The notes under the pieces are model-generated. The model had not been told where the DNA came from. It saw nothing but the letters and a program-made list of their open reading frames with translations, and did not search any database. Positions 13,905 through 36,359 of a stretch of 64,000 nucleotides of DNA are shown here, piece by piece. Origin of the DNA: a phage; the NCBI GenBank assembly GCA_027468165.1, contig GCA_027468165.1_3951.1, one strand, 5' to 3'. Every line of letters begins with the position of its first letter. The stretch's first letter is position 1. The translations under genes were made by a program, and so were the position numbers.

Positions 13905-13981
13905 CTCTGTTTAGCTCAGCTTGGTAGAGCGTTCCGTTTGGGGCGGTAAGGCCGGAGGTTCAAGTCCTCCAACAGAGACCA
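13905..13981 (+). tRNA. tRNA-Pro (anticodon UGG)
   Basis: Manual fold: acceptor CTCTGTT/AACAGAG, D-arm GCTCAGCTTGGTAGAGC, anticodon loop TTTGGGG, T-arm GGAGG-TTCAAGT-CCTCC, CCA encoded. Confidence 0.7.
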
Positions 13982-13988
13982 AATTAAT

Positions 13989-14066
13989 GTTCCAGTAGAC
14001 AAAATGGTATAGTCACCACTCTTTCAAAGTGGATATTTGAGGGTTCAAATCCCTTCTGGAACGCCA
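13989..14066 (+). tRNA. tRNA-Glu (anticodon UUC)
   Basis: Acceptor GTTCCAG/CTGGAAC, anticodon stem-loop CCACT-CTTTCAA-AGTGG, T-loop TTCAAAT, CCA encoded. Confidence 0.75.
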
Positions 14067-14073
14067 GTTTTGA

Positions 14074-14146
14074 CAGAAGACCAATTGCAGCAAACTTAAT
14101 CTTATTCATCTGACACGAAATCGGACAAAGAAGAGATTTGGTCTGG
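14074..14146 (+). repeat. tRNA-spacer element E1 (5' CAGAAGACC ... 3' GGTCTGG)
   Basis: Conserved termini able to pair (AGACC/GGTCT); starts 8 nt after tRNA-Glu and ends 12 nt before the next tRNA. Confidence 0.5.
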
Positions 14147-14157
14147 TCATTAAGAAT

Positions 14158-14234
14158 TGCGGGTATAGAGAAAGGGCGTCTCACATGTCTCATTAGCATG
14201 GTATCGGCAGGTTCGACTCCTGCACCCGCCTCCA
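14158..14234 (+). tRNA. tRNA-Met (anticodon CAU), initiator-like
   Basis: Anticodon stem-loop CATGT-CTCATTA-GCATG, T-arm GCAGG-TTCGACT-CCTGC, acceptor with unpaired 1:72 position; D-arm atypical. Confidence 0.55.
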
Positions 14235-14240
14235 ATTTTG

Positions 14241-14300
14241 CAGAAGACCGTATGCAGCAATAAACTACTTTTTGCGGATAAAAGAAAAAACACGGTCTGG
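14241..14300 (+). repeat. tRNA-spacer element E2 (CAGAAGACC ... GGTCTGG)
   Basis: Same terminal motifs and same placement relative to flanking tRNAs as E1. Confidence 0.5.
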
Positions 14301-14311
14301 CAATGTATTAA

Positions 14312-14385
14312 GGTTAGGAAGCACATAAGGTATGTGCGGTCGCCTGTTAAGCGAATGGCACAGGGTTCGAATCCCTGACTAACCG
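14312..14385 (+). tRNA. tRNA-Asn (anticodon GUU)
   Basis: Acceptor GGTTAGG/ACTAACC, D-stem GCAC/GTGC, anticodon loop CTGTTAA, T-arm CAGGG-TTCGAAT-CCCTG. Confidence 0.65.
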
Positions 14386-14396
14386 CAAATTTAAAT

Positions 14397-14484
14397 GTGT
14401 CGTTATCCCGTAGATGGTAGCGGTGGGGACTGTAAATCCCTTGTCATTGAGACTCGGTAGGTTCGACTCCTACACGGCACACCA
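14397..14484 (+). tRNA. tRNA-Tyr (anticodon GUA), long variable arm
   Basis: Acceptor GTGTCGT/ACGGCAC, anticodon loop CTGTAAA, ~14-nt variable arm, T-arm GTAGG-TTCGACT-CCTAC, CCA encoded. Confidence 0.7.
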
Positions 14485-14545
14485 ATTTTGAGAGGGCTAT
14501 TTAGCCCCTCCCTTAAAGGGTTCTTACGAGTATCCTTTAAAGGAG

Positions 14546-14619
14546 CAGAAGACCAAATACAGCAAGTTACTTAAAATTTCAAGCTAATTTAATTTTGAAA
14601 AATTTAAAACTTGGTCTGG
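14546..14619 (+). repeat. tRNA-spacer element E3 (CAGAAGACC ... GGTCTGG)
   Basis: Same terminal motifs. Confidence 0.5.
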
Positions 14620-14632
14620 CTCAACAAATTTA

Positions 14633-14763
14633 CAGAAGACCGTTTACAGCAAAACTTAAACAATCTATTTCTCGGTAAAGAAAAGGCGAAGGTTCGATTC
14701 CTTCACTCGGCAGATGTCGAGTTGGTGTAATGGTAGCACTTAAGATGATAAACAACGGTCTGG
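14633..14763 (+). repeat. tRNA-spacer element E4 (CAGAAGACC ... GGTCTGG) enclosing a tRNA-like fragment
   Basis: Same terminal motifs; interior contains T-arm and acceptor-like hairpins. Confidence 0.5.
14688..14739 (+). other. tRNA-like fragment in permuted order (T-arm + 3' acceptor strand, then complementary 5' acceptor strand + D-arm); no anticodon arm
   Basis: GAAGG-TTCGATT-CCTTC then ACTCGGC, 4-nt gap, then GTCGAGT + TGGTGTAATGGTAGCAC; the two acceptor strands are complementary. Confidence 0.3.
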
Positions 14764-14866
14764 TAATTATCTTTGCAGTAGCTTATGTGGCTAATTATGT
14801 CGTCCCATGAGTGCCGATGAATTTCCTTAGCATGATTCTAGATTAGCTTAATAGGAAATGACTCTA

Positions 14867-14887
14867 CAGACCCTTTAGCAAGGTCTG
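14867..14887 (+). repeat. Minimal spacer element E5 (CAGACC-CTTTAGCAA-GGTCTG)
   Basis: Shares the AGACC/GGTCT closing stem and GCAA motif with E1-E4. Confidence 0.4.
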
Positions 14888-14914
14888 CGTAGGTTACTGC
14901 AAAGATAATTTAAT

Positions 14915-14990
14915 GGAAGTGTAGCAGAATGGTGATGCGGCAGACTTTTAATCTGACAGGCGACGGGTTCGAATCCCTCCACTTCTACCA
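14915..14990 (+). tRNA. tRNA-Lys (anticodon UUU)
   Basis: Acceptor GGAAGTG/CACTTCT, anticodon loop CTTTTAA, T-loop TTCGAAT, CCA encoded; T-stem weak. Confidence 0.6.
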
Positions 14991-14994
14991 ATAT

Positions 14995-15071
14995 GGTTCA
15001 GTCGCAGATAAGGTAATGCAAGGGTCTCATAAGCCCTATGAATGTGGGTTCGATTCCCATCTGAACCTCCA
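14995..15071 (+). tRNA. tRNA with anticodon CAU (elongator Met or Ile-lysidine)
   Basis: Acceptor GGTTCAG/CTGAACC, anticodon stem-loop AGGGT-CTCATAA-GCCCT, T-loop TTCGATT, CCA encoded. Confidence 0.65.
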
Positions 15072-15072
15072 A

Positions 15073-15148
15073 GCTGGTATAGTTAAGAAGGTTATAACAC
15101 TCCCCTGATAAGGGAACATCGGTGGTTCGATTCCACCTACCAGTACCA
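15073..15148 (+). tRNA. tRNA-Ile (anticodon GAU)
   Basis: Acceptor GCTGGTA/TACCAGT, anticodon loop CTGATAA, T-arm GGTGG-TTCGATT-CCACC, CCA encoded. Confidence 0.7.
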
Positions 15149-15157
15149 ATTTCAATA

Positions 15158-15192
15158 AAGTTGTTGACATTGATATGTGACCACTTTATAGT
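15158..15192 (+). promoter_or_regulatory. Putative internal promoter: A-tract, TTGACA 15164-15169, 17 bp, TATAGT 15187-15192
   Basis: Near-consensus sigma70 elements. Confidence 0.5.
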
Positions 15193-15484
15193 AACTAAAA
15201 TACTTCATAATATGTATAATTCAAACACCAATACATGAGCGTTAGACGTAACACAATGTGGGGAAATTTGTTGTACATATTCTGAATAGTTTTCGTTGCG
15301 TAGCGTCTATTTTGCAAATTTAAAATAAATGCAAACGACAATGTTTTTCTGGCAGTAGCTTGATAGGCTAAACACCAGTGAGGTCTTCCAATCCCTCATC
15401 AAAGAATTTGGCGTACTCGCCCACGGTATGATTAATAAGGTGGGCATCTTTAAGGGTTTTTTAAGAGAGTCTTTAAAGATTAAT

Positions 15485-15561
15485 GCACCCTTAGTTCAAC
15501 TGGACAGAACAAATGACTTCTAATCATTAGGTTACAGGTTCGAATCCTGTAGGGTGTGCCA
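15485..15561 (+). tRNA. tRNA-Arg (anticodon UCU)
   Basis: Acceptor GCACCCT/AGGGTGT, D-stem GTTC/GAAC, anticodon stem-loop AATGA-CTTCTAA-TCATT, T-arm ACAGG-TTCGAAT-CCTGT, CCA encoded. Confidence 0.75.
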
Positions 15562-15576
15562 GTTTAAGAGGTATAT

Positions 15577-15918
15577 ATGAAGAACGGCTCTATAGGAGAA
15601 ATTGCAACTCAACTTGAGTTTATGAAGATGGGATATGAAATCTACTCACCAGCAACTGACAATGCTAGGTATGATTTTATAGCTCACAAAGACGGTAAAC
15701 TTTATAAAGTTGAAGTTAAATCCACCTCAAGGAAAGTTAGAGATGTATGGAAAGTGCAACTAAAGAGAGTTCATTCAAATAGAAGTTCAAACAGAATAGC
15801 TAACTTTGATAACACGTTAGTTGATTTCTTATCAGTTTATATTGAACCTCTTGAAAAGGTTATAATCCTTAAAGCTAAAGACGTTACTTCAAAAACTGAG
15901 TTAAGCTTAAGGGTTTAG
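15577..15918 (+). CDS. Small PD-(D/E)xK nuclease-like protein (113 aa) embedded in the tRNA array
   Basis: Motif D(FIA)...KVEVKS resembling the PD...(D/E)xK catalytic core; strong SD. Confidence 0.5.
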   Translation: MKNGSIGEIATQLEFMKMGYEIYSPATDNARYDFIAHKDGKLYKVEVKSTSRKVRDVWKVQLKRVHSNRSSNRIANFDNTLVDFLSVYIEPLEKVIILKAKDVTSKTELSLRV

Positions 15919-16027
15919 ATTATCTTCTGTAAGGAGGTGGTCTGTATCTCATGTTTCCAGAACATGTAAATAATCTGAGAAGGGGCTTTACAGTGTTGCG
16001 AAAATACGGTAAGCTTCGAATTATAGT

Positions 16028-16110
16028 ATGGGACGATGTTAAGACTCTAAGGCATGAGCAACGGCTTCCAACACCGTTTCAAAGGGGTTCAACTCCTCCG
16101 TCCCATGCCA
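16028..16110 (+). tRNA. Atypical tRNA-like gene, possibly tRNA-Trp (anticodon CCA) with enlarged D-region
   Basis: Perfect acceptor ATGGGAC/GTCCCAT, anticodon stem-loop ACGGC-TTCCAAC-ACCGT, T-loop TTCAACT, CCA encoded; D-region ~7 nt too long. Confidence 0.4.
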
Positions 16111-16122
16111 AGTCTTATTAGG

Positions 16123-16210
16123 GGTAGGTAGCGGCTAATGGTAGCCAAACTGTCTTGAAAACAGTTGCCACTGTAGAGATACGGTGAGGGTTCGACTCCT
16201 TTACTTACCG
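16123..16210 (+). tRNA. tRNA-Ser (anticodon UGA), long variable arm
   Basis: Anticodon stem-loop ACTGT-CTTGAAA-ACAGT, ~20-nt variable arm, T-loop TTCGACT. Confidence 0.6.
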
Positions 16211-16465
16211 CCTAATAAGATTTAAAGCCAAGCTTCATTCGGATGTTGCTTTGGTATCCCTCGTGTATTGTCGTACACAAGTAAAGCACCTAGTAGGTGT
16301 CACGGAGAAGAGATAATATCAAGCTCTCCAAAGGTTCTAGTCACCGGATTAAACAAGACTATGCAAAGGCCTATTTAGGTCTTTTTAGAGGGCTTCTAAG
16401 GTTATTACAGCTTGTTGTGGAACCTTGTTGCTTAGGTTCTTAGAAGTTCTCTAAAAAGATTTAAT

Positions 16466-16543
16466 GGGAGATTGACGGTAATTGGTAAACCTATCTCGCT
16501 TAGAACGAGATGTTTGAGGGTTCGAATCCCTTGTCTCCTACCA
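16466..16543 (+). tRNA. tRNA with anticodon UAG (Leu), short variable region
   Basis: Acceptor GGGAGAT/GTCTCCT, anticodon stem-loop TCTCG-CTTAGAA-CGAGA, 5-nt variable region, T-arm GAGGG-TTCGAAT-CCCTT, A73, CCA encoded. Confidence 0.6.
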
Positions 16544-16550
16544 AATTAAT

Positions 16551-16626
16551 GCAGGTGTAGCAAAATGGTTATGCGGCTGACTCTTAATCAGTAAGACGAT
16601 GGGTTCAATTCCCTCCACCTGTACCA
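16551..16626 (+). tRNA. tRNA-Lys (anticodon CUU)
   Basis: Acceptor GCAGGTG/CACCTGT, anticodon stem-loop GCTGA-CTCTTAA-TCAGT, T-loop TTCAATT, CCA encoded. Confidence 0.65.
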
Positions 16627-16632
16627 GACATT

Positions 16633-16708
16633 GGGGATGTAGTTTACATGGTTAAAACATAAGTTTTGCAAACTTAAGTACAGGGTTCAATTCCCTGCTT
16701 CTCCACCA
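16633..16708 (+). tRNA. tRNA-Ala (anticodon UGC)
   Basis: G3:U70 wobble pair in acceptor stem, D-stem GTTT/AAAC, anticodon stem-loop TAAGT-TTTGCAA-ACTTA, T-arm CAGGG-TTCAATT-CCCTG, CCA encoded. Confidence 0.75.
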
Positions 16709-16714
16709 ATTAGT

Positions 16715-16789
16715 GCATCCATAGTTTAAACGGGAAAATTACAGTCTTCCAAACTGAGGTTGAGGGTTCGATTCCCTCTGGATGCTCCA
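16715..16789 (+). tRNA. tRNA-Gly (anticodon UCC)
   Basis: Acceptor GCATCCA/TGGATGC, anticodon loop CTTCCAA, T-arm GAGGG-TTCGATT-CCCTC, CCA encoded. Confidence 0.7.
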
Positions 16790-16796
16790 AATTAAT

Positions 16797-16873
16797 GCTG
16801 CTTTCGTATAATTGGCTATTACACATCCCTTGTAAGGATGGAAATGCAGGTTCGAGTCCTGTGAGCAGCACCA
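16797..16873 (+). tRNA. tRNA-Thr (anticodon UGU)
   Basis: Acceptor GCTGCTT/GAGCAGC, anticodon stem-loop CATCC-CTTGTAA-GGATG, T-arm GCAGG-TTCGAGT-CCTGT, CCA encoded. Confidence 0.75.
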
Positions 16874-16968
16874 ATTCAGAGGTCAAGTGAAAGACCGCTG
16901 GTGTCAACTGAAGACCGTAACAAATTCCACGGAGTTGAGTTAGCGGCACAACTTCAGACCTCTTTCAT

Positions 16969-17043
16969 ACTCGCTTAGTTTATATGGTAAAACACCACCC
17001 TTACAAGATGAAGAAAAAGGTTCAAGTCCTTTAGTGAGTACCA
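16969..17043 (+). tRNA. tRNA-Val (anticodon UAC)
   Basis: Acceptor ACTCGCT/AGTGAGT, D-stem GTTT/AAAC, anticodon loop CTTACAA, T-arm AAAGG-TTCAAGT-CCTTT, CCA encoded; anticodon stem weak. Confidence 0.6.
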
Positions 17044-17044
17044 T

Positions 17045-17122
17045 GTTCCAGTATCCCAATTGGTAGAGGATGCAAGCTCAAACCTTGTACTAGTGACGGT
17101 TCGAATCCGTCTTGGAACACCA
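17045..17122 (+). tRNA. tRNA with anticodon CAA (Leu), short variable region
   Basis: Acceptor GTTCCAG/TTGGAAC, anticodon stem-loop GCAAG-CTCAAAC-CTTGT, 6-nt variable region, T-arm GACGG-TTCGAAT-CCGTC, A73, CCA encoded. Confidence 0.6.
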
Positions 17123-17236
17123 ACTTTAGGAGAGCACTGTGAGTGATAAGTCAATAGCAAAAAAGTTTAGAGCGTCATACCTAAACAGACGTAAAAACAG
17201 AGATTGTGAAAAACTGTATGGTGTTCTTGTAGGTAA

Positions 17237-17312
17237 GCAGGATTAGTTCAAATGGATAGAGCAACAGTCTACGAAGCTGTTAATAGGGGTTCGAATCCCT
17301 TATCCTGCGCCA
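17237..17312 (+). tRNA. tRNA-Arg (anticodon ACG)
   Basis: Perfect acceptor GCAGGAT/ATCCTGC, anticodon stem-loop ACAGT-CTACGAA-GCTGT, T-loop TTCGAAT, CCA encoded. Confidence 0.75.
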
Positions 17313-17331
17313 ATTTAAAGAGGCTATTTAG

Positions 17332-17889
17332 ATGAGATATTTGAAGTATGCTTCATGGATTTTCTTAGCTTTGTTAGAGCCATTTGCAGCAATCTTAGCA
17401 GTTATCTTAGCACCTTTCGTAGTTCCATTTTACAGTGAGAAGAAAGGACACTTACCTTTCGGCTTCAGATGGATGGAAACATACGACAACCCAATTGATG
17501 GTGATAAAGGTCATGTCGAACGGTGGGCTAAGATTAGAAAGATTGGTAAGCTCGGTGTCTACATGCAGAGAGTTGGATGGCTCTGGAGAAACAAAGCTTA
17601 TAACTTCTCTTACCATGTGTTAGGAAGAGATGTAAAAGATGTTACTAAGTGGAAAGGTAATATCAATGTAAGTTCTAACCCTGAAGATAATCAGACAGGT
17701 TATCTCCTAATGTGGAACAGTAATGCTTGGGGGTTATTCGCTTTTATCCCATCAATTAAAGTCTTTGGTAAACAATTCTACTGGAGAATTTATGTTGGGT
17801 GGAAACTTAAAAGTGTTGTCCCAGAAGAAAGAGCATTCTCAAGGGAAAGAGTTATGTTGGCATTCTTTATTCATCCACTGAGAAAGTAA
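17332..17889 (+). CDS. Membrane protein with hydrophobic N-terminus (185 aa) embedded in the tRNA array
   Basis: ORF track; N-terminal segment WIFLALLEPFAAILAVILAPFVVPF; ATG 20 nt after tRNA-Arg. Confidence 0.5.
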   Translation: MRYLKYASWIFLALLEPFAAILAVILAPFVVPFYSEKKGHLPFGFRWMETYDNPIDGDKGHVERWAKIRKIGKLGVYMQRVGWLWRNKAYNFSYHVLGRDVKDVTKWKGNINVSSNPEDNQTGYLLMWNSNAWGLFAFIPSIKVFGKQFYWRIYVGWKLKSVVPEERAFSRERVMLAFFIHPLRK

Positions 17890-17897
17890 AGATTTAA

Positions 17898-17973
17898 AGG
17901 GGATTAGTTTACAAGGTTAAAACCTCGGTCTTTGAAATCGAAGAAGTTGGTTCAATTCCAACATCCCCCGCCA
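17898..17973 (+). tRNA. tRNA-Gln (anticodon UUG)
   Basis: D-stem GTTT/AAAC, anticodon stem-loop TCGGT-CTTTGAA-ATCGA, T-arm GTTGG-TTCAATT-CCAAC, CCA encoded; position 1:72 unpaired. Confidence 0.65.
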
Positions 17974-17975
17974 AT

Positions 17976-18054
17976 GCTCCATTACTCCAATTGGCAGAGA
18001 GGCCAGACTTAAAATCTGTGTTATGTATCGGTTCGAATCCGATATGGAGTACCA
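17976..18054 (+). tRNA. tRNA with anticodon UAA (Leu), short variable region
   Basis: Acceptor GCTCCAT/ATGGAGT, anticodon loop CTTAAAA, 7-nt variable region, T-arm ATCGG-TTCGAAT-CCGAT, A73, CCA encoded. Confidence 0.6.
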
Positions 18055-18059
18055 AATTT

Positions 18060-18135
18060 AGCGGTATAGCATAACTGGCAATGCAACAGTCTCTGAAGCT
18101 GTCTTATTAAGGTTCAAATCCTTATGCCGCTGCCA
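18060..18135 (+). tRNA. tRNA-Gln (anticodon CUG)
   Basis: Acceptor AGCGGTA/TGCCGCT, D-stem GCAT/ATGC, anticodon stem-loop ACAGT-CTCTGAA-GCTGT, T-arm TAAGG-TTCAAAT-CCTTA, CCA encoded. Confidence 0.7.
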
Positions 18136-18166
18136 CTTCTAAGGGTTCTTACGAGAGTCCTTAAAT

Positions 18167-18242
18167 GTGGCCTTATCATAAATGGTAATGACCCATGCTG
18201 TGAACATGGTCTATACGGGTTCAAATCCCGTAGGTCACCCCA
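18167..18242 (+). tRNA. tRNA-His (anticodon GUG)
   Basis: Acceptor GTGGCCT/AGGTCAC, D-stem TCAT/ATGA, anticodon stem-loop CCATG-CTGTGAA-CATGG, T-arm ACGGG-TTCAAAT-CCCGT, C73, CCA encoded. Confidence 0.75.
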
Positions 18243-18247
18243 ATTTA

Positions 18248-18324
18248 TAGTCCAAGTAGCTTATATGGTTAAAGCGCGTGTCTGAAAAACATGAGAAGAG
18301 GGTTCAAATCCCACTGGACTACCA
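18248..18324 (+). tRNA. tRNA-Phe (anticodon GAA); ends uncertain
   Basis: D-stem GCTT/AAGC, anticodon stem-loop CGTGT-CTGAAAA-ACATG, T-loop TTCAAAT; acceptor pairing admits two registers. Confidence 0.55.
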
Positions 18325-18340
18325 ATTTCAAAGGTGCTTA

Positions 18341-19075
18341 ATGAAAGAGATGACAGAACAAGGTAAGGAGATTTTTAATCTCTTAAAAACTGGTAGAGGG
18401 TTTTCTAATCCCCTTATTACTGGTGCAGCAGTTCTCGGTGGAACCGTAGCTGCCTCTACATCACTTGTAAGCTCTATTAGCTCTGTAACAGACCCTACAA
18501 TAAAGGATAAACTTGTTGCGGCTGGACTTACAACAGTTCTGCTTAACAGCTTTACAACGAGTCTGACAAGCACTACATCAACCACTAAGACACTGACAGA
18601 TTACGGTCAAAAGTCCATTGATGAGTTTTCATCACGTATGCAGGTAGCAAAAGGATATTCCAATGTTATGGGTGCAGCAGGAGAACAAGTCGGTTGTACA
18701 CCATTTAGTGGTATTATGGGTGTTGCTACAGAGTACGGTCAAAAAGCTATTGACACAATTAACAGTACACTAGATGGTGTTAATGATGTATTAAGTGACT
18801 TACAAGATGCTATTGATAAAGGTCTTGATACTGTTTCTGATTTAGCTAATCAGGCTGTTAGTAAGATTAATGAAGGTATTTCGAAGATTACAGCTTATGC
18901 AAATGAAGTTGTGCAGATGATTGAAGAAGAAGCTGCCCTTATTGCAGAGTACCTTAAAACGAATATCAATGGGTTCTTAGCAGGTATCTTACCAGACTGG
19001 TTTGATGATGCTTGTAAAACTGGTGTGATTGACACTATTGCAACACCAGAAATGAAGAGCGCATTACAGAAATAA
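18341..19075 (+). CDS. Hypothetical Ser/Thr-rich protein (245 aa from the ATG at 18341)
   Basis: ORF-track frame trimmed to the first ATG downstream of tRNA-Phe (MKEMTEQ...). Confidence 0.5.
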   Translation: MKEMTEQGKEIFNLLKTGRGFSNPLITGAAVLGGTVAASTSLVSSISSVTDPTIKDKLVAAGLTTVLLNSFTTSLTSTTSTTKTLTDYGQKSIDEFSSRMQVAKGYSNVMGAAGEQVGCTPFSGIMGVATEYGQKAIDTINSTLDGVNDVLSDLQDAIDKGLDTVSDLANQAVSKINEGISKITAYANEVVQMIEEEAALIAEYLKTNINGFLAGILPDWFDDACKTGVIDTIATPEMKSALQK

Positions 19076-19076
19076 T

Positions 19077-19169
19077 GGAAGATTAACCCTAAAAGGTAAG
19101 GGAGCAGTTTGCTAAACTGCCAGTAGCTGAGAAATCGGTGTACCAGTTCAAGTCTGGTATCTTCCTCCA
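19077..19169 (+). tRNA. tRNA-Ser (anticodon GCU), long variable arm
   Basis: Acceptor GGAAGAT/ATCTTCC, anticodon stem-loop GCAGT-TTGCTAA-ACTGC, ~21-nt variable arm, T-arm ACCAG-TTCAAGT-CTGGT, CCA encoded. Confidence 0.6.
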
Positions 19170-19173
19170 ATTT

Positions 19174-19249
19174 GAATCCGTGACAGAAATGGCTATGTGC
19201 CTGTCTGCAAAACAGGTTTATAAGGGTTCGAGTCCCTTCGGATTCTCCA
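19174..19249 (+). tRNA. tRNA-Cys (anticodon GCA)
   Basis: Perfect acceptor GAATCCG/CGGATTC, anticodon stem-loop CCTGT-CTGCAAA-ACAGG, T-arm AAGGG-TTCGAGT-CCCTT, U73, CCA encoded. Confidence 0.7.
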
Positions 19250-27854: not shown

Positions 27855-28428
27855 AAAAGGTCTAGTTAGAACCTTAGTGGATGTTATTGGTCACAGACTA
27901 GCTCGTGATAAAAATAATAGACCAAATGTAATTAGAGCTTACCCTTCTGATAACTCAAATGACAAAGGTTTAAAACCTGACCAGCCATTCATTACCGTAT
28001 ATTGTCAAGATGCTGCAACACCTTATGGTTGGGTTCTTGATAAGTTTGTTGAGGATGATGTAGTTTGCTACAGAATTGCTTTTCAGATTCCAGTATTGAT
28101 TACGGTAAATGGTAAAGGTGCTCACAGTATTATGCTTGAGCTTAAACAACGATTAGAGATGAGTTCAGTCAGAGATTTAATTCTTGAAGAGACAGGAGCT
28201 ACAGTTCTAGATACTGGAGCTATCCCAAATGACTATACTTATCTTAATACAGATTTCGAAAATTCTGCACCTCTTGTTGTAACTCTTGTAAAAAATTCAG
28301 TCCTGAAAGATGAACGTGGAGGTATTATTGAACGTGTCATCGTTGATGGTGAATTAGTTTACGAAGAAGGACAAGAGCCACCAGAATATACTATCCATCT
28401 AGATGTAGACTCCAAAGGGGTAAAATAA
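27829..28428 (+). CDS. Hypothetical protein (199 aa)
   Basis: ORF track. Confidence 0.45.
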   Translation: MQLETAELEKGLVRTLVDVIGHRLARDKNNRPNVIRAYPSDNSNDKGLKPDQPFITVYCQDAATPYGWVLDKFVEDDVVCYRIAFQIPVLITVNGKGAHSIMLELKQRLEMSSVRDLILEETGATVLDTGAIPNDYTYLNTDFENSAPLVVTLVKNSVLKDERGGIIERVIVDGELVYEEGQEPPEYTIHLDVDSKGVK

Positions 28429-29781
28429 ATGTGGAATCCAATTGTTAATGTAGATATTACATTGAACACCGCAGGAACTACAAGAGAAGGTTTTGGGCTA
28501 CCACTATTTTTAGCTTCAACAGATAACTTTGAAGAAAGAGTGCGTGGTTACACTTCCTTAACTGAAGTTGCTGAAGATTTCGATGAGAAGTCTGCTGCAT
28601 ATAAGGCTGCTAAACAACTTTGGAGTCAAACTCCTAAAGTAACTCAGCTTTATATTGGTAGACGTGCTATGCAGTACACTGTATCAATTCCTGATGCCGT
28701 TACCGAAAGTACAGACTATTCTTTAACTGTAGCTGCTGGCGGTGGAATTTCTCAACCATATCAGTATACAGCAAAAAGCTCAGACACTGCTGAAGTAGTG
28801 TTGCAACAGTTTAAAACACAGATTGAAGCTGACCCAACAATCAAAGATAAGGTTTCTGTGAACGTAACTGGTAGTGGTTCTTCTACCACAATGGTTATTA
28901 CCAAAGCTGGTGATAATGATTTTGTGAAAGTAACAACTACAGCACAAACAGTGTCAATTGCAAGTACAACTGCTGATACAGCGTCAACTGCTCTGGCAGC
29001 CATTGAAGCTTATTCTACTGACTGGTATTTCATTGCAGCAGAAGACAGAACTCAACAGTTTGTCTTAGCAATGGCTTCTGAGATTCAGGCTCGCAAGAAA
29101 ATCTTCTTCACTGCTAACTCTGATGTAGCAGCACTGCAAGGCACAGAATTAAACAGTGCAAATGATGTTCCAGCACAGCTTGCTAAGAACATGTACACCC
29201 GTACAGTTTGCTTGTGGCATCACACAGCAGCAGAAGACTATCCAGAGATGGCATACATTGCTTATGGTGCTCCATATGATGCAGGTTCAATTGCTTGGGG
29301 TAACGCACAGTTAACTGGCGTAGCTGCTTCTCTACAACCATCTAATCAGAGACCTCTGACAAGTATTCAGAAGTCAGCTTTAGATGCACGTCACTGTAAC
29401 TTTATTGACCTTGATGGTGGTGTTCCAGTGGTTCGTAGAGGGATTACTTCTGGTGGGGAATGGATTGATATCATCCGTGGTGTTGACTGGTTAGAATCAG
29501 ACCTGAAAACTTCTCTGAGAGACTTGCTAATTAACCAGAAGGGTGGTAAGATTACTTATGATGATACTGGTATTACCCGTATTCGTCAAGTCATTGAAAC
29601 CTCTCTACAAAGAGCAGTCAACAGAAACTTCCTGTCATCTTACACAGTTAATGTTCCTAAAGCCTCTCAAGTTGCTTTAGCAGACAAGAAAGCTCGTATC
29701 CTGAAAGATGTTACCTTCGCAGGTATCTTAGCAGGGGCTATCTTGGATGTTGACTTGAAAGGTACAGTGGCTTACGAATAA
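28429..29781 (+). CDS. Tail sheath protein (putative)
   Basis: 450-aa ORF followed by a 148-aa ORF, chaperone pair and tape measure, the conserved contractile-tail gene order. Confidence 0.55.
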   Translation: MWNPIVNVDITLNTAGTTREGFGLPLFLASTDNFEERVRGYTSLTEVAEDFDEKSAAYKAAKQLWSQTPKVTQLYIGRRAMQYTVSIPDAVTESTDYSLTVAAGGGISQPYQYTAKSSDTAEVVLQQFKTQIEADPTIKDKVSVNVTGSGSSTTMVITKAGDNDFVKVTTTAQTVSIASTTADTASTALAAIEAYSTDWYFIAAEDRTQQFVLAMASEIQARKKIFFTANSDVAALQGTELNSANDVPAQLAKNMYTRTVCLWHHTAAEDYPEMAYIAYGAPYDAGSIAWGNAQLTGVAASLQPSNQRPLTSIQKSALDARHCNFIDLDGGVPVVRRGITSGGEWIDIIRGVDWLESDLKTSLRDLLINQKGGKITYDDTGITRIRQVIETSLQRAVNRNFLSSYTVNVPKASQVALADKKARILKDVTFAGILAGAILDVDLKGTVAYE

Positions 29782-29796
29782 TAGAGGTAAATTGGA

Positions 29797-30243
29797 ATGG
29801 CTATGTATCAGCAATATTCCCCTAAAGACGTTGTATGTAGCTGGAACGGCATTGCTATTGAAGGCTTTGCTCCAGATTCATTCTTACGTCTACAGAGAAC
29901 ATCACCACTTATTACACCAGTTGTAGGTGCAGGTGGTCAGGTTGCTCTGACAAGAAATGCAGACAAGACAGGTACTATTGAGATTGAGCTAATGCAGACT
30001 TCTCTCTCTAATCAGATGCTTTCTGCAATTCAAGCTAAACAAGACAATATGGAACTTGAAGAAGATATCTCTTCTAACTTCGTAATCTACGACCCATCAG
30101 GCTCTGTTCTGGCAACTGGTATTAATGCTTGGTTGCAGGAACTACCACAGATTGAACTTGGTCGTGACCAGAACTCTAAGACTTGGATTTTTGGTTGTGA
30201 GAAGCTAGACTACACTTCTACAATTCCAGCGTCAAGTGTTTAA
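29797..30243 (+). CDS. Tail tube protein (putative)
   Basis: Position and size; followed by a strong terminator. Confidence 0.5.
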   Translation: MAMYQQYSPKDVVCSWNGIAIEGFAPDSFLRLQRTSPLITPVVGAGGQVALTRNADKTGTIEIELMQTSLSNQMLSAIQAKQDNMELEEDISSNFVIYDPSGSVLATGINAWLQELPQIELGRDQNSKTWIFGCEKLDYTSTIPASSV

Positions 30244-30255
30244 TAAATCCTATAA

Positions 30256-30288
30256 GGGGGAGACTTTAAAAGGTCTTCCCCTTTTTTG
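30256..30288 (+). terminator. Intrinsic terminator (GGGGGAGAC ... GTCTTCCCC followed by TTTTTT)
   Basis: Long GC stem plus T6 after sheath/tube genes. Confidence 0.8.
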
Positions 30289-30316
30289 TTTCTTTTAAAA
30301 GTATTAAGGAATCACA

Positions 30317-30715
30317 ATGAAAACAGAAGCTAGAGTAATTAATGGTAAGAAAGTAAATATCGTTCTGCTTGGGGCAAGAGATGGTATTAAGATGTCTATG
30401 AAGTTGGGTAAAATTGTTGTTCCGACTTTTGCACAGATGCTATCAAGTCTGACTGATAAAGATAAGAAAGAAGTCCCAATGGTTCCATTTAAAGAACTTG
30501 TTGAGGCTTGTTTTGACAGAATTGAAGAAATTAACCTTGAAGAAATGGCTACCATGTTATTTCAAGGGGCAACTGTTGATGACTTCCCACTTAATATTGA
30601 TACATACTTCCAAGCAAACTATGGTGAATTTATTGATTACTTAGCATTTGCGCTGGAGGCAAACTTCGGAAGTTTTTTCGAAGCAAGCATTTTCAAAAGC
30701 CTAACTTCTCAGTAA
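30317..30715 (+). CDS. Tail assembly chaperone (G-like)
   Basis: Position immediately upstream of tape measure; slippery heptamer near 3' end. Confidence 0.6.
   Translation: MKTEARVINGKKVNIVLLGARDGIKMSMKLGKIVVPTFAQMLSSLTDKDKKEVPMVPFKELVEACFDRIEEINLEEMATMLFQGATVDDFPLNIDTYFQANYGEFIDYLAFALEANFGSFFEASIFKSLTSQ
30673..30679 (+). promoter_or_regulatory. Candidate -1 programmed frameshift site T_TTT_TTC
   Basis: X_XXY_YYZ heptamer in frame of ORF 30317-30715; the -1 frame is open from here through ORF 30718-30957. Confidence 0.5.
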
Positions 30716-30717
30716 AC

Positions 30718-30956
30718 ATGGGTAACACTCTACAGACACCACTAACTGATGCTGCTGTAGAGGCAACCTATGAAGAAGCAGACGAGATGAAATTTGTGCT
30801 TGCTATTTATGGTATGGAAGGGTGTAAAGAAACACTTGACCAACTCTTTGCTATGACATTCTCTGATTTATTATCATTGAGACAATTTCTTGAAATTCAG
30901 AGGTCGTATAAAGAGGAAATTGCTTACAACGAACTTAGAAGAGCAGGAAAAATGTA

Positions 30957-30957
<1 letters not shown>
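30718..30957 (+). CDS. Tail assembly chaperone extension ORF (GT-like; probably expressed by -1 frameshift from 30317)
   Basis: ORF in -1 frame relative to upstream chaperone; abuts tape measure start. Confidence 0.5.

Positions 30958-36359
<5,402 letters not shown>

Follow-up and report, generated by a model that had tools for sequence, protein, structure and literature searches.

Between the tail tube gene and the tape measure gene of a 64,000-nucleotide (nt) stretch of phage DNA (contig GCA_027468165.1_3951.1 of assembly GCA_027468165.1, hereafter called the window), two short open reading frames (ORFs) follow each other on the + strand, ORF1 at 30317..30715 and ORF2 at 30718..30957. The question raised by this locus is how the second of them is translated, from an ATG of its own or as a -1 extension of the first, as an earlier annotation made from the letters alone (the sequence-only reading) had suggested. 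We conclude that, very probably, the two ORFs encode the tail-assembly chaperones G and T of a Felix O1-like myovirus and are expressed like G/GT of lambda and E/E+E' of P2, a -1 ribosomal frameshift giving rise to a GT fusion in addition to G.

Anatomy of the slip site and of the two frames

The slippery heptamer T_TTT_TTC, the putative -1 shift site, occupies positions 30673..30679 of the + strand and lies within ORF1. The zero-frame codons of ORF1 at this place are AGT (30671), TTT (30674), TTC (30677) and GAA, so that the heptamer, read in the zero frame, has the X_XXY_YYZ register; bases and codons agree with the sequence-only reading, which had placed it in the zero frame of ORF 30317-30715. 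That reading had further claimed that the -1 frame is open through ORF2 to the tape measure start, and this was borne out. From 30637 onward, the -1 frame meets no stop before the TAA at 30955-30957, and this TAA overlaps the tape-measure ATG (30957) as TAATG, while the +1 frame closes after 6 codons.

Translation of the zero frame yields G, a tail assembly (tape-measure) chaperone of 132 amino acids (aa) (30317..30715, + strand), whose start is preceded by a ribosome binding site (RBS) pairing with the anti-Shine-Dalgarno sequence at -6.1 kcal/mol. The T segment of the -1 frame (30679..30957, + strand) comprises 92 sense codons and a stop and contains the 79-aa ORF2 (30718..30957, + strand). 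The predicted GT fusion would thus consist of 213 aa, namely, G residues 1-121 followed by the 92 codons of the T segment, and would read MKTE...EANFGSFF-RSKHFQKPNFSVNMGNT...RRAGKM, with ...ANFGSFFRSKHFQKPNF... as the stretch around the junction. Bases 30679-30715 are coding in both frames. The -1 frame peptide HFQKPNFSVNMGNTLQTPLTDAAVEATYEEADEMK begins upstream of ATG 30718, and the residues HFQKPNFSVNM are likewise encoded by the -1 frame upstream of this ATG.

The two ORFs had been called tail-assembly chaperones, and profile searches support this for both. G matched the Pfam family PF21822, Phage_TAC_15 (E 3e-19, 70 bits with a cut-off of 22), and tail-assembly-chaperone families of PHROG (phrog_1613, E 2e-48), and ORF2 matched phrog_4963, labeled "tail assembly chaperone", over its full length (E 3e-55). 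A search of solved-structure sequences with the G profile gave no match below E 0.5, and a protein search with the fusion as the query returned only proteins of G length, with no T-only and no naturally fused match. One further PHROG family, phrog_3840 (158 positions), covers the fusion through residue 151 and scores 162 bits, versus 146 for ORF1 alone; its profile therefore already holds -1 frame sequence from some members.

We then asked how often such a site would arise by chance. TTTTTTC at 30673-30679 is the sole in-frame XXXYYYZ heptamer of ORF1. The window contains 76 such heptamers in frame within 72 long ORFs totaling 16,915 codons, about 4.5 per 1000 codons, and the chance of meeting one in the 26-codon overlap is therefore about 0.1. 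A long -1 extension follows only 1 of the 76, the site studied here, with 92 codons versus 26 for the next longest. In Escherichia coli, U_UU.U_UU.C alone, with no stimulator, supports a shift rate above 0.1%, and motifs of the class H_HH.U_UU.Y rank with the most efficient ones (PMC4066793).

The mechanism that we propose is as follows. Ribosomes would initiate at ATG 30317, and the majority would stop at 30713-30715, releasing the 132-aa G. A minority would pause with two tRNA-Phe on the UUU (P site) and the UUC (A site) of U_UUU_UUC, step back by one base, pair again with UUU UUU, and resume at CGA (30679) in the -1 frame. These shifted ribosomes would stop at 30955-30957 and release the 213-aa GT, in which ATG 30718 would encode an internal Met instead of serving as a start. 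By analogy with lambda, G would coat the tape-measure protein and the T domain would recruit the tube protein, neither being present in the virion. No downstream structure would be needed for the slip, and a GGAGG lying 13 nt before the heptamer may raise its rate, as the Shine-Dalgarno (SD)-like element of dnaX does. We also noted that 25 tRNA genes are clustered at 13905-19249 of the + strand and that one of them, a tRNA-Phe(GAA) gene at 18249-18324, would provide a tRNA decoding both codons of the slippery site.

Conservation of the slippery run across lineages

To compare the locus between lineages, we collected the homologous loci of annotated Mooglevirus, Suspvirus and Kolesnikvirus phages, of LPML1, Pectobacterium phage Wc4 and Alteromonas phage PT11-V22, together with 50 IMG/VR contigs and three Logan contigs. 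This set comprised 23 distinct lineages with T in the -1 frame, and their G proteins are 25 to 81% identical to that of the window. In all of them (23/23), the codons of the x-Phe-Phe motif are NNT TTT TTY: AGT TTT TTC in the Ounavirinae-like phages and AGT or ACT TTT TTT in the marine relatives. The other Phe codons of the same G genes, counted in 20 lineages, are TTT 76 times and TTC 65 times, and the Asn-Phe motif, whose Phe lies two codons further upstream, uses TTC in 12 of these lineages and TTT in 8. The Ser preceding Phe-Phe is always encoded by AGT in this 20-lineage set, despite the six Ser codons. Judged by its codons, the T-run is preserved as a nucleotide sequence to a degree far exceeding the demands of the amino acids, a pattern indicating selection on the slippery run at the nucleotide level. 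An exception is a GC-rich distant homologue (L061), which has CCTTTTT instead.

The arrangement of the frames is conserved as well. Wherever the contig extends that far, the -1 frame ends no more than 22 nt from the tape-measure ATG (0 to 9 nt in the annotated phages), and none of the lineages compared has an open +1 frame. At the protein level, T equals or exceeds G in conservation in four of five between-genus comparisons (0.80 for T and 0.73 for G, 0.89 and 0.79, 0.49 and 0.45, and 0.52 and 0.36), the exception being Wc4 (0.27 versus 0.42). The -1 frame residues RSKHFQKP, encoded upstream of ATG 30718, are conserved too.

These data bear on the possibility that the heptamer is there by chance or that the frame break is a homopolymer sequencing or assembly artefact, in which case the true gene would be one unbroken ORF or T would be noncoding. 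Homopolymers are indeed prone to insertion and deletion errors, and the chance of a heptamer in the overlap is about 0.1. However, T6C and the frame arrangement are identical in 24 distinct Felixounavirus sequences, the same arrangement recurs in independent genera and in metagenomes, and T is, at the protein level, at least as conserved as G. The comparative data effectively refute chance or artefact, whose probability we regard as negligible, and they are the decisive evidence that more than chance operates at the heptamer.

Within the genus, the same 24 sequences vary synonymously at only 5% of T codons (30638-30957), compared with 42% for G, 37% for the tape measure, 21% for the tube and 31% for the sheath. 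We considered this low diversity as a sign of a nucleotide-level element and rejected it, as the effect is gone in between-genus comparisons, and we therefore do not link it to the frameshift; it may come from a recent sweep or recombination rather than from an RNA element.

A natural control is offered by Buttiauxella noackiae, whose chromosome encodes a G homologue (P0086) that is 45% identical to the G of the window. The locus (L062, JPRU01000001.1, 4001-7179) is a chromosomal tail module, probably of a prophage. It has two separate genes, one for a G of 126 aa and one for a contiguous G'-T of 201 aa, followed by the tape-measure gene, and both proteins show similarity to Phage_TAC_15. Residues 76-208 of the window fusion align with residues 59-194 of the 201-aa ORF across the junction (E 5e-13), where "NFGSF--FRSKHFQKPNF" of the window faces "NFGVFLSFVVKPFVKPDF" of Buttiauxella. 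The contiguous ORF is colinear with the predicted fusion, so that the G-T architecture also occurs in an ordinary protein. In Buttiauxella, Asn-Phe-Gly-Ser-Phe-Phe is encoded by AAC TTT GGC TCA TTC TTC, which is nonslippery. The T-run is absent exactly where slippage would not be needed, and the pair of G and G'-T genes is a duplication-based alternative to frameshifting.

Candidate stimulators and other routes to T

Several points weigh against a frameshift at this site. The sequence-only reading had suggested a search for a downstream stimulatory structure, and that search, made with single-sequence folds, an RNAalifold consensus and per-lineage z-scores, revealed none that is conserved in the Ounavirinae. 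For bases +3 to +52 after the heptamer, the folding energy is -3.2 kcal/mol (z, +0.39), the consensus of 8 Ounavirinae sequences reaches -4.9 kcal/mol with 0 compensatory pairs, and no dnaX-type hairpin or pseudoknot lies 5 to 9 nt downstream of the heptamer. The slip rate may therefore be low. Protein conservation of Ser-Phe-Phe explains part of the T-richness of the site, though not the choice of codons, and one of the two peptide patterns used for retrieval from IMG/VR contains SFF, which biases the amino-acid motif but not its codons. In the literature searched, we came across no experiment in which GT was detected for a phage of the clade. Finally, in this genus, the G stop is separated from ATG 30718 by 2 nt, so that some free T might be produced by termination-reinitiation.

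This proximity (TAAACATG) speaks for an alternative in which G and T are two independent genes, ORF2 being translated from its own ATG at 30718..30720 (+ strand), for example, by termination-reinitiation, and the heptamer being a by-product of encoding Ser-Phe-Phe. An ATG is present at the T start in Felixounavirus, Mooglevirus and Suspvirus, the one at 30718 is commonly taken to open a 79-aa ORF of its own, and two separate ORFs are listed in most GenBank and RefSeq records. However, ATG 30718 has no RBS: its pairing with the anti-SD sequence amounts to +0.7 kcal/mol, versus -5.1 to -8.8 kcal/mol for 12 neighboring gene starts. Moreover, the ATG is restricted to these three genera. In relatives with a conserved T, namely, LPML1, Wc4, Kolesnikvirus, three Logan lineages and the marine relatives, the first 16 to 60 codons of T are mostly devoid of ATG, GTG and TTG, and the annotators of such start-less relatives either entered nothing over about 240 nt or placed just a tiny ORF there. 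Also speaking against independent genes are the NNT TTT TTY codons of all 23 lineages, which the amino acids do not force, the loss of the run exactly where T leaves the -1 frame (Buttiauxella), and the conservation of RSKHFQKP upstream of the ATG and its alignment with the contiguous Buttiauxella ORF. We regard independent translation of ORF2 as highly improbable and ATG 30718 as most likely the codon of an internal Met of GT (Met-135 of the fusion).

The same GT could also be made if RNA polymerase stuttered on T6 and inserted one extra U into some transcripts, which would then be translated normally. Homopolymeric T-runs can cause transcriptional slippage, and AAAAAAA and UUUUUUU are underrepresented in all frames of E. 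coli genes, possibly for this reason (PMC4066793). The marine relatives even have T7. The insertion of one U yields the identical protein (S-F-F-R), so that the sequence cannot separate stuttering from a ribosomal slip. Bacterial RNA polymerase, however, usually slips efficiently only on runs of some 9 or more, and the run consists of 6 T's here and of 6 or 7 in the 23 lineages, never more. In addition, the run keeps to the X_XXY_YYZ register throughout, and register concerns ribosomes and not the polymerase. Stuttering appears quite improbable, and a ribosomal -1 slip is the route to GT that we favor.

Three structures near the heptamer were examined as stimulators and rejected. The nearest stable stem, one of 8 bp, CUCUACAG/CUGUAGAG (30728-30735 / 30754-30761), belongs to a structure whose base lies about 37 nt downstream, which is too far, and is not kept in Moogle. 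A hairpin at the T-run, CUUCGGAA/UUCGAAG, and a terminator-like match at 30653-30669 both result from the way the conserved motif is encoded, with Glu (GAR)...Phe (TTC), and include the slip site itself. In the marine contigs L044, L051, L053, L056 and L058 and in others, a small hairpin follows TTTTTTT after 2 to 6 nt (z down to -3), for example, AAAGGGU...GCCCUUU or GGAAACG...CGUUUUCU, the stem sequences varying by lineage. This hairpin, absent from the window, may be a lineage-specific stimulator.

Upstream of the heptamer, an SD-like GGAGG (30655..30659, + strand) separated from it by a gap of 13 nt is a candidate stimulator through duplex formation with the anti-SD sequence. Its pairing energy, -9.3 kcal/mol, ranks in the top 0.5% of the 15-mers within 3 kb on either side of the heptamer and equals the strength of real RBSs here, and GGAGG is invariant in the 24 distinct Felixounavirus sequences. 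A comparable element (GGAGG, AAGGAG or AGGGAG) is found 11 to 13 nt upstream in 15 of 21 lineages and is absent from LPML1, Kolesnikvirus, L065, L056 and L058. By experiment, effective SD-like stimulators sit 6 to 17 nt upstream (PMC4066793). When synonymous codons were resampled with the amino acids held constant, the strength of the element gave P values of 0.07 to 0.84 per lineage, and the lineages are interrelated; the SD-like element is therefore suggestive only. A broader scheme, which we put forward tentatively and consider rather doubtful as a whole, is that the chaperone frameshift of the entire clade (Ounavirinae and marine Myoalterovirus-like phages) is tuned by an SD-like element 11 to 13 nt 5' of the U-run instead of by a downstream structure, with some free T made in addition by reinitiation in Felixounavirus, Mooglevirus and Suspvirus. 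The comparison gives a testable hint of such an upstream SD-like stimulator.

Known systems, earlier annotation and genomic setting

The frameshift itself is an ordinary, textbook arrangement of long-tailed phages, already known and annotated at the same site in close relatives. Salmonella phage Meda (MH586731, Felixounavirus) and the Citrobacter phages Moogle, Michonne and Mijalis (Mooglevirus) have the same gene pair, the same TTTTTTC and the same join, and differ from the window by a few percent sequence divergence only. Joined coding sequences are deposited for Meda and Moogle, and the -1 fusions that we rebuilt equal the deposited AXY86324.1 (Meda, 213 aa) and YP_009145710.1 (Moogle, 212 aa) residue for residue; for Michonne, a 212-aa product of the same protein cluster is deposited. 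The genome announcement papers of Moogle and Mijalis mention the frameshift. The join annotations of these phages rest on homology and pattern, not on experiment, and the cryo-electron microscopy and gene-essentiality papers on Bas63 do not address the frameshift. Most other records of the genus, including RefSeq and that of Felix O1 itself, list two separate ORFs.

The likeness to the conserved G/GT arrangement, proposed by the sequence-only reading, held in every respect compared: the position between tube and tape measure, the heptamer within the overlap, the -1 extension, the RBS-less ORF2 and the conservation. A class of conserved programmed frameshifts of the G/GT type was reportedly described by Xu, Hendrix and Duda in 2004. 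In lambda, where the slip site is G_GGA_AAG, the chaperone and its -1 extension likewise share a start, and the genes lie between the major tail and tape-measure genes. Lambda differs in being a siphovirus and shares no detectable sequence homology with the present locus, and the roles assigned to G and T of the window are putative. Lambda G is abundant and GT rare (G:GT, about 30:1), and neither is found in the virion (PMC5009743).

P2 E/E+E' resembles the locus in that the phage has a contractile tail, the chaperone pair adjoins the tape-measure gene and a -1 shift takes place on a T6 heptamer; the P2 heptamer, TTTTTTG, has no downstream hairpin (PMC3091744). It differs in that the heptamer ends with G and not C and in that the products have 91 and 142 aa, versus 132 and 213 aa here. 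No P2 family was among the Pfam matches of G at E <= 1, and the likeness is one of mechanism only. The dnaX gene of E. coli also combines a heptamer with an upstream SD-like element; unlike the present site, it has a strong downstream hairpin, and its shift truncates the product, while here the shift would extend it.

In biological terms, nothing new is added to the G/GT paradigm. What the comparison provides is a clean demonstration, the run being kept in 23/23 lineages but not in the one locus that encodes G and G'T by separate genes. For annotation, the 79-aa ORF, listed as a separate or hypothetical protein in most Felixounavirus records, most likely represents the C-terminal portion of a 213-aa frameshift product. 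When the tail module of therapeutic or typing phages is recoded, the T-run, and probably its upstream context too, needs to be left intact.

Positions 28400-33300 of the window are 97.6% identical to Salmonella phage S19cd, and about 300 phage records match this region, nearly all of them from Felixounavirus, a genus of the subfamily Ounavirinae that comprises Felix O1-like myoviruses infecting Salmonella and E. coli. By these matches, the source of the window is evidently a Felix O1-like myovirus of this genus. The order on the + strand is sheath, tube, terminator-like hairpin, G, T and tape measure. The tail sheath gene (28429..29781) matches phrog_205, tail sheath (E 3e-123), and the Pfam family DUF3383 and is annotated as tail sheath in relatives. 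The tail tube gene (29797..30243) matches PF11681 and phrog_280, and the former family carries the label Phage_Tube_PhiTE in Logan contigs; from lambda gpV, we infer that the tube protein is the partner of the T domain. The tape measure protein gene (30957..33203) matches phrog_4036 (1514 bits) and the Pfam family TMP_3.

In the interval between tube and G, at 30254..30283 of the + strand (30254-30293 when delimited more widely), lies a strong intrinsic-terminator-like hairpin, a 13-bp stem followed by the T-tract TTTTGTTTCT, and phage Meda has an annotated terminator at the corresponding position. This hairpin would reduce transcription of the chaperone and tape measure genes relative to that of sheath and tube. 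A GibS match on it, the sole match of an Rfam scan of 30200-31100, was rejected as subthreshold (26 bits versus a gathering score of 115).

Chaperone genes of the Felix O1 type also turned up in records bearing Gram-positive names (GU169904.1, OK283618.1 and WP_252560994.1). "Staphylococcus phage SA1" and a Staphylococcus hyicus assembly show 97% identity, and "Listeria phage LPML1" is classified in Ounavirinae; these records are likely the result of contamination or mislabeling.
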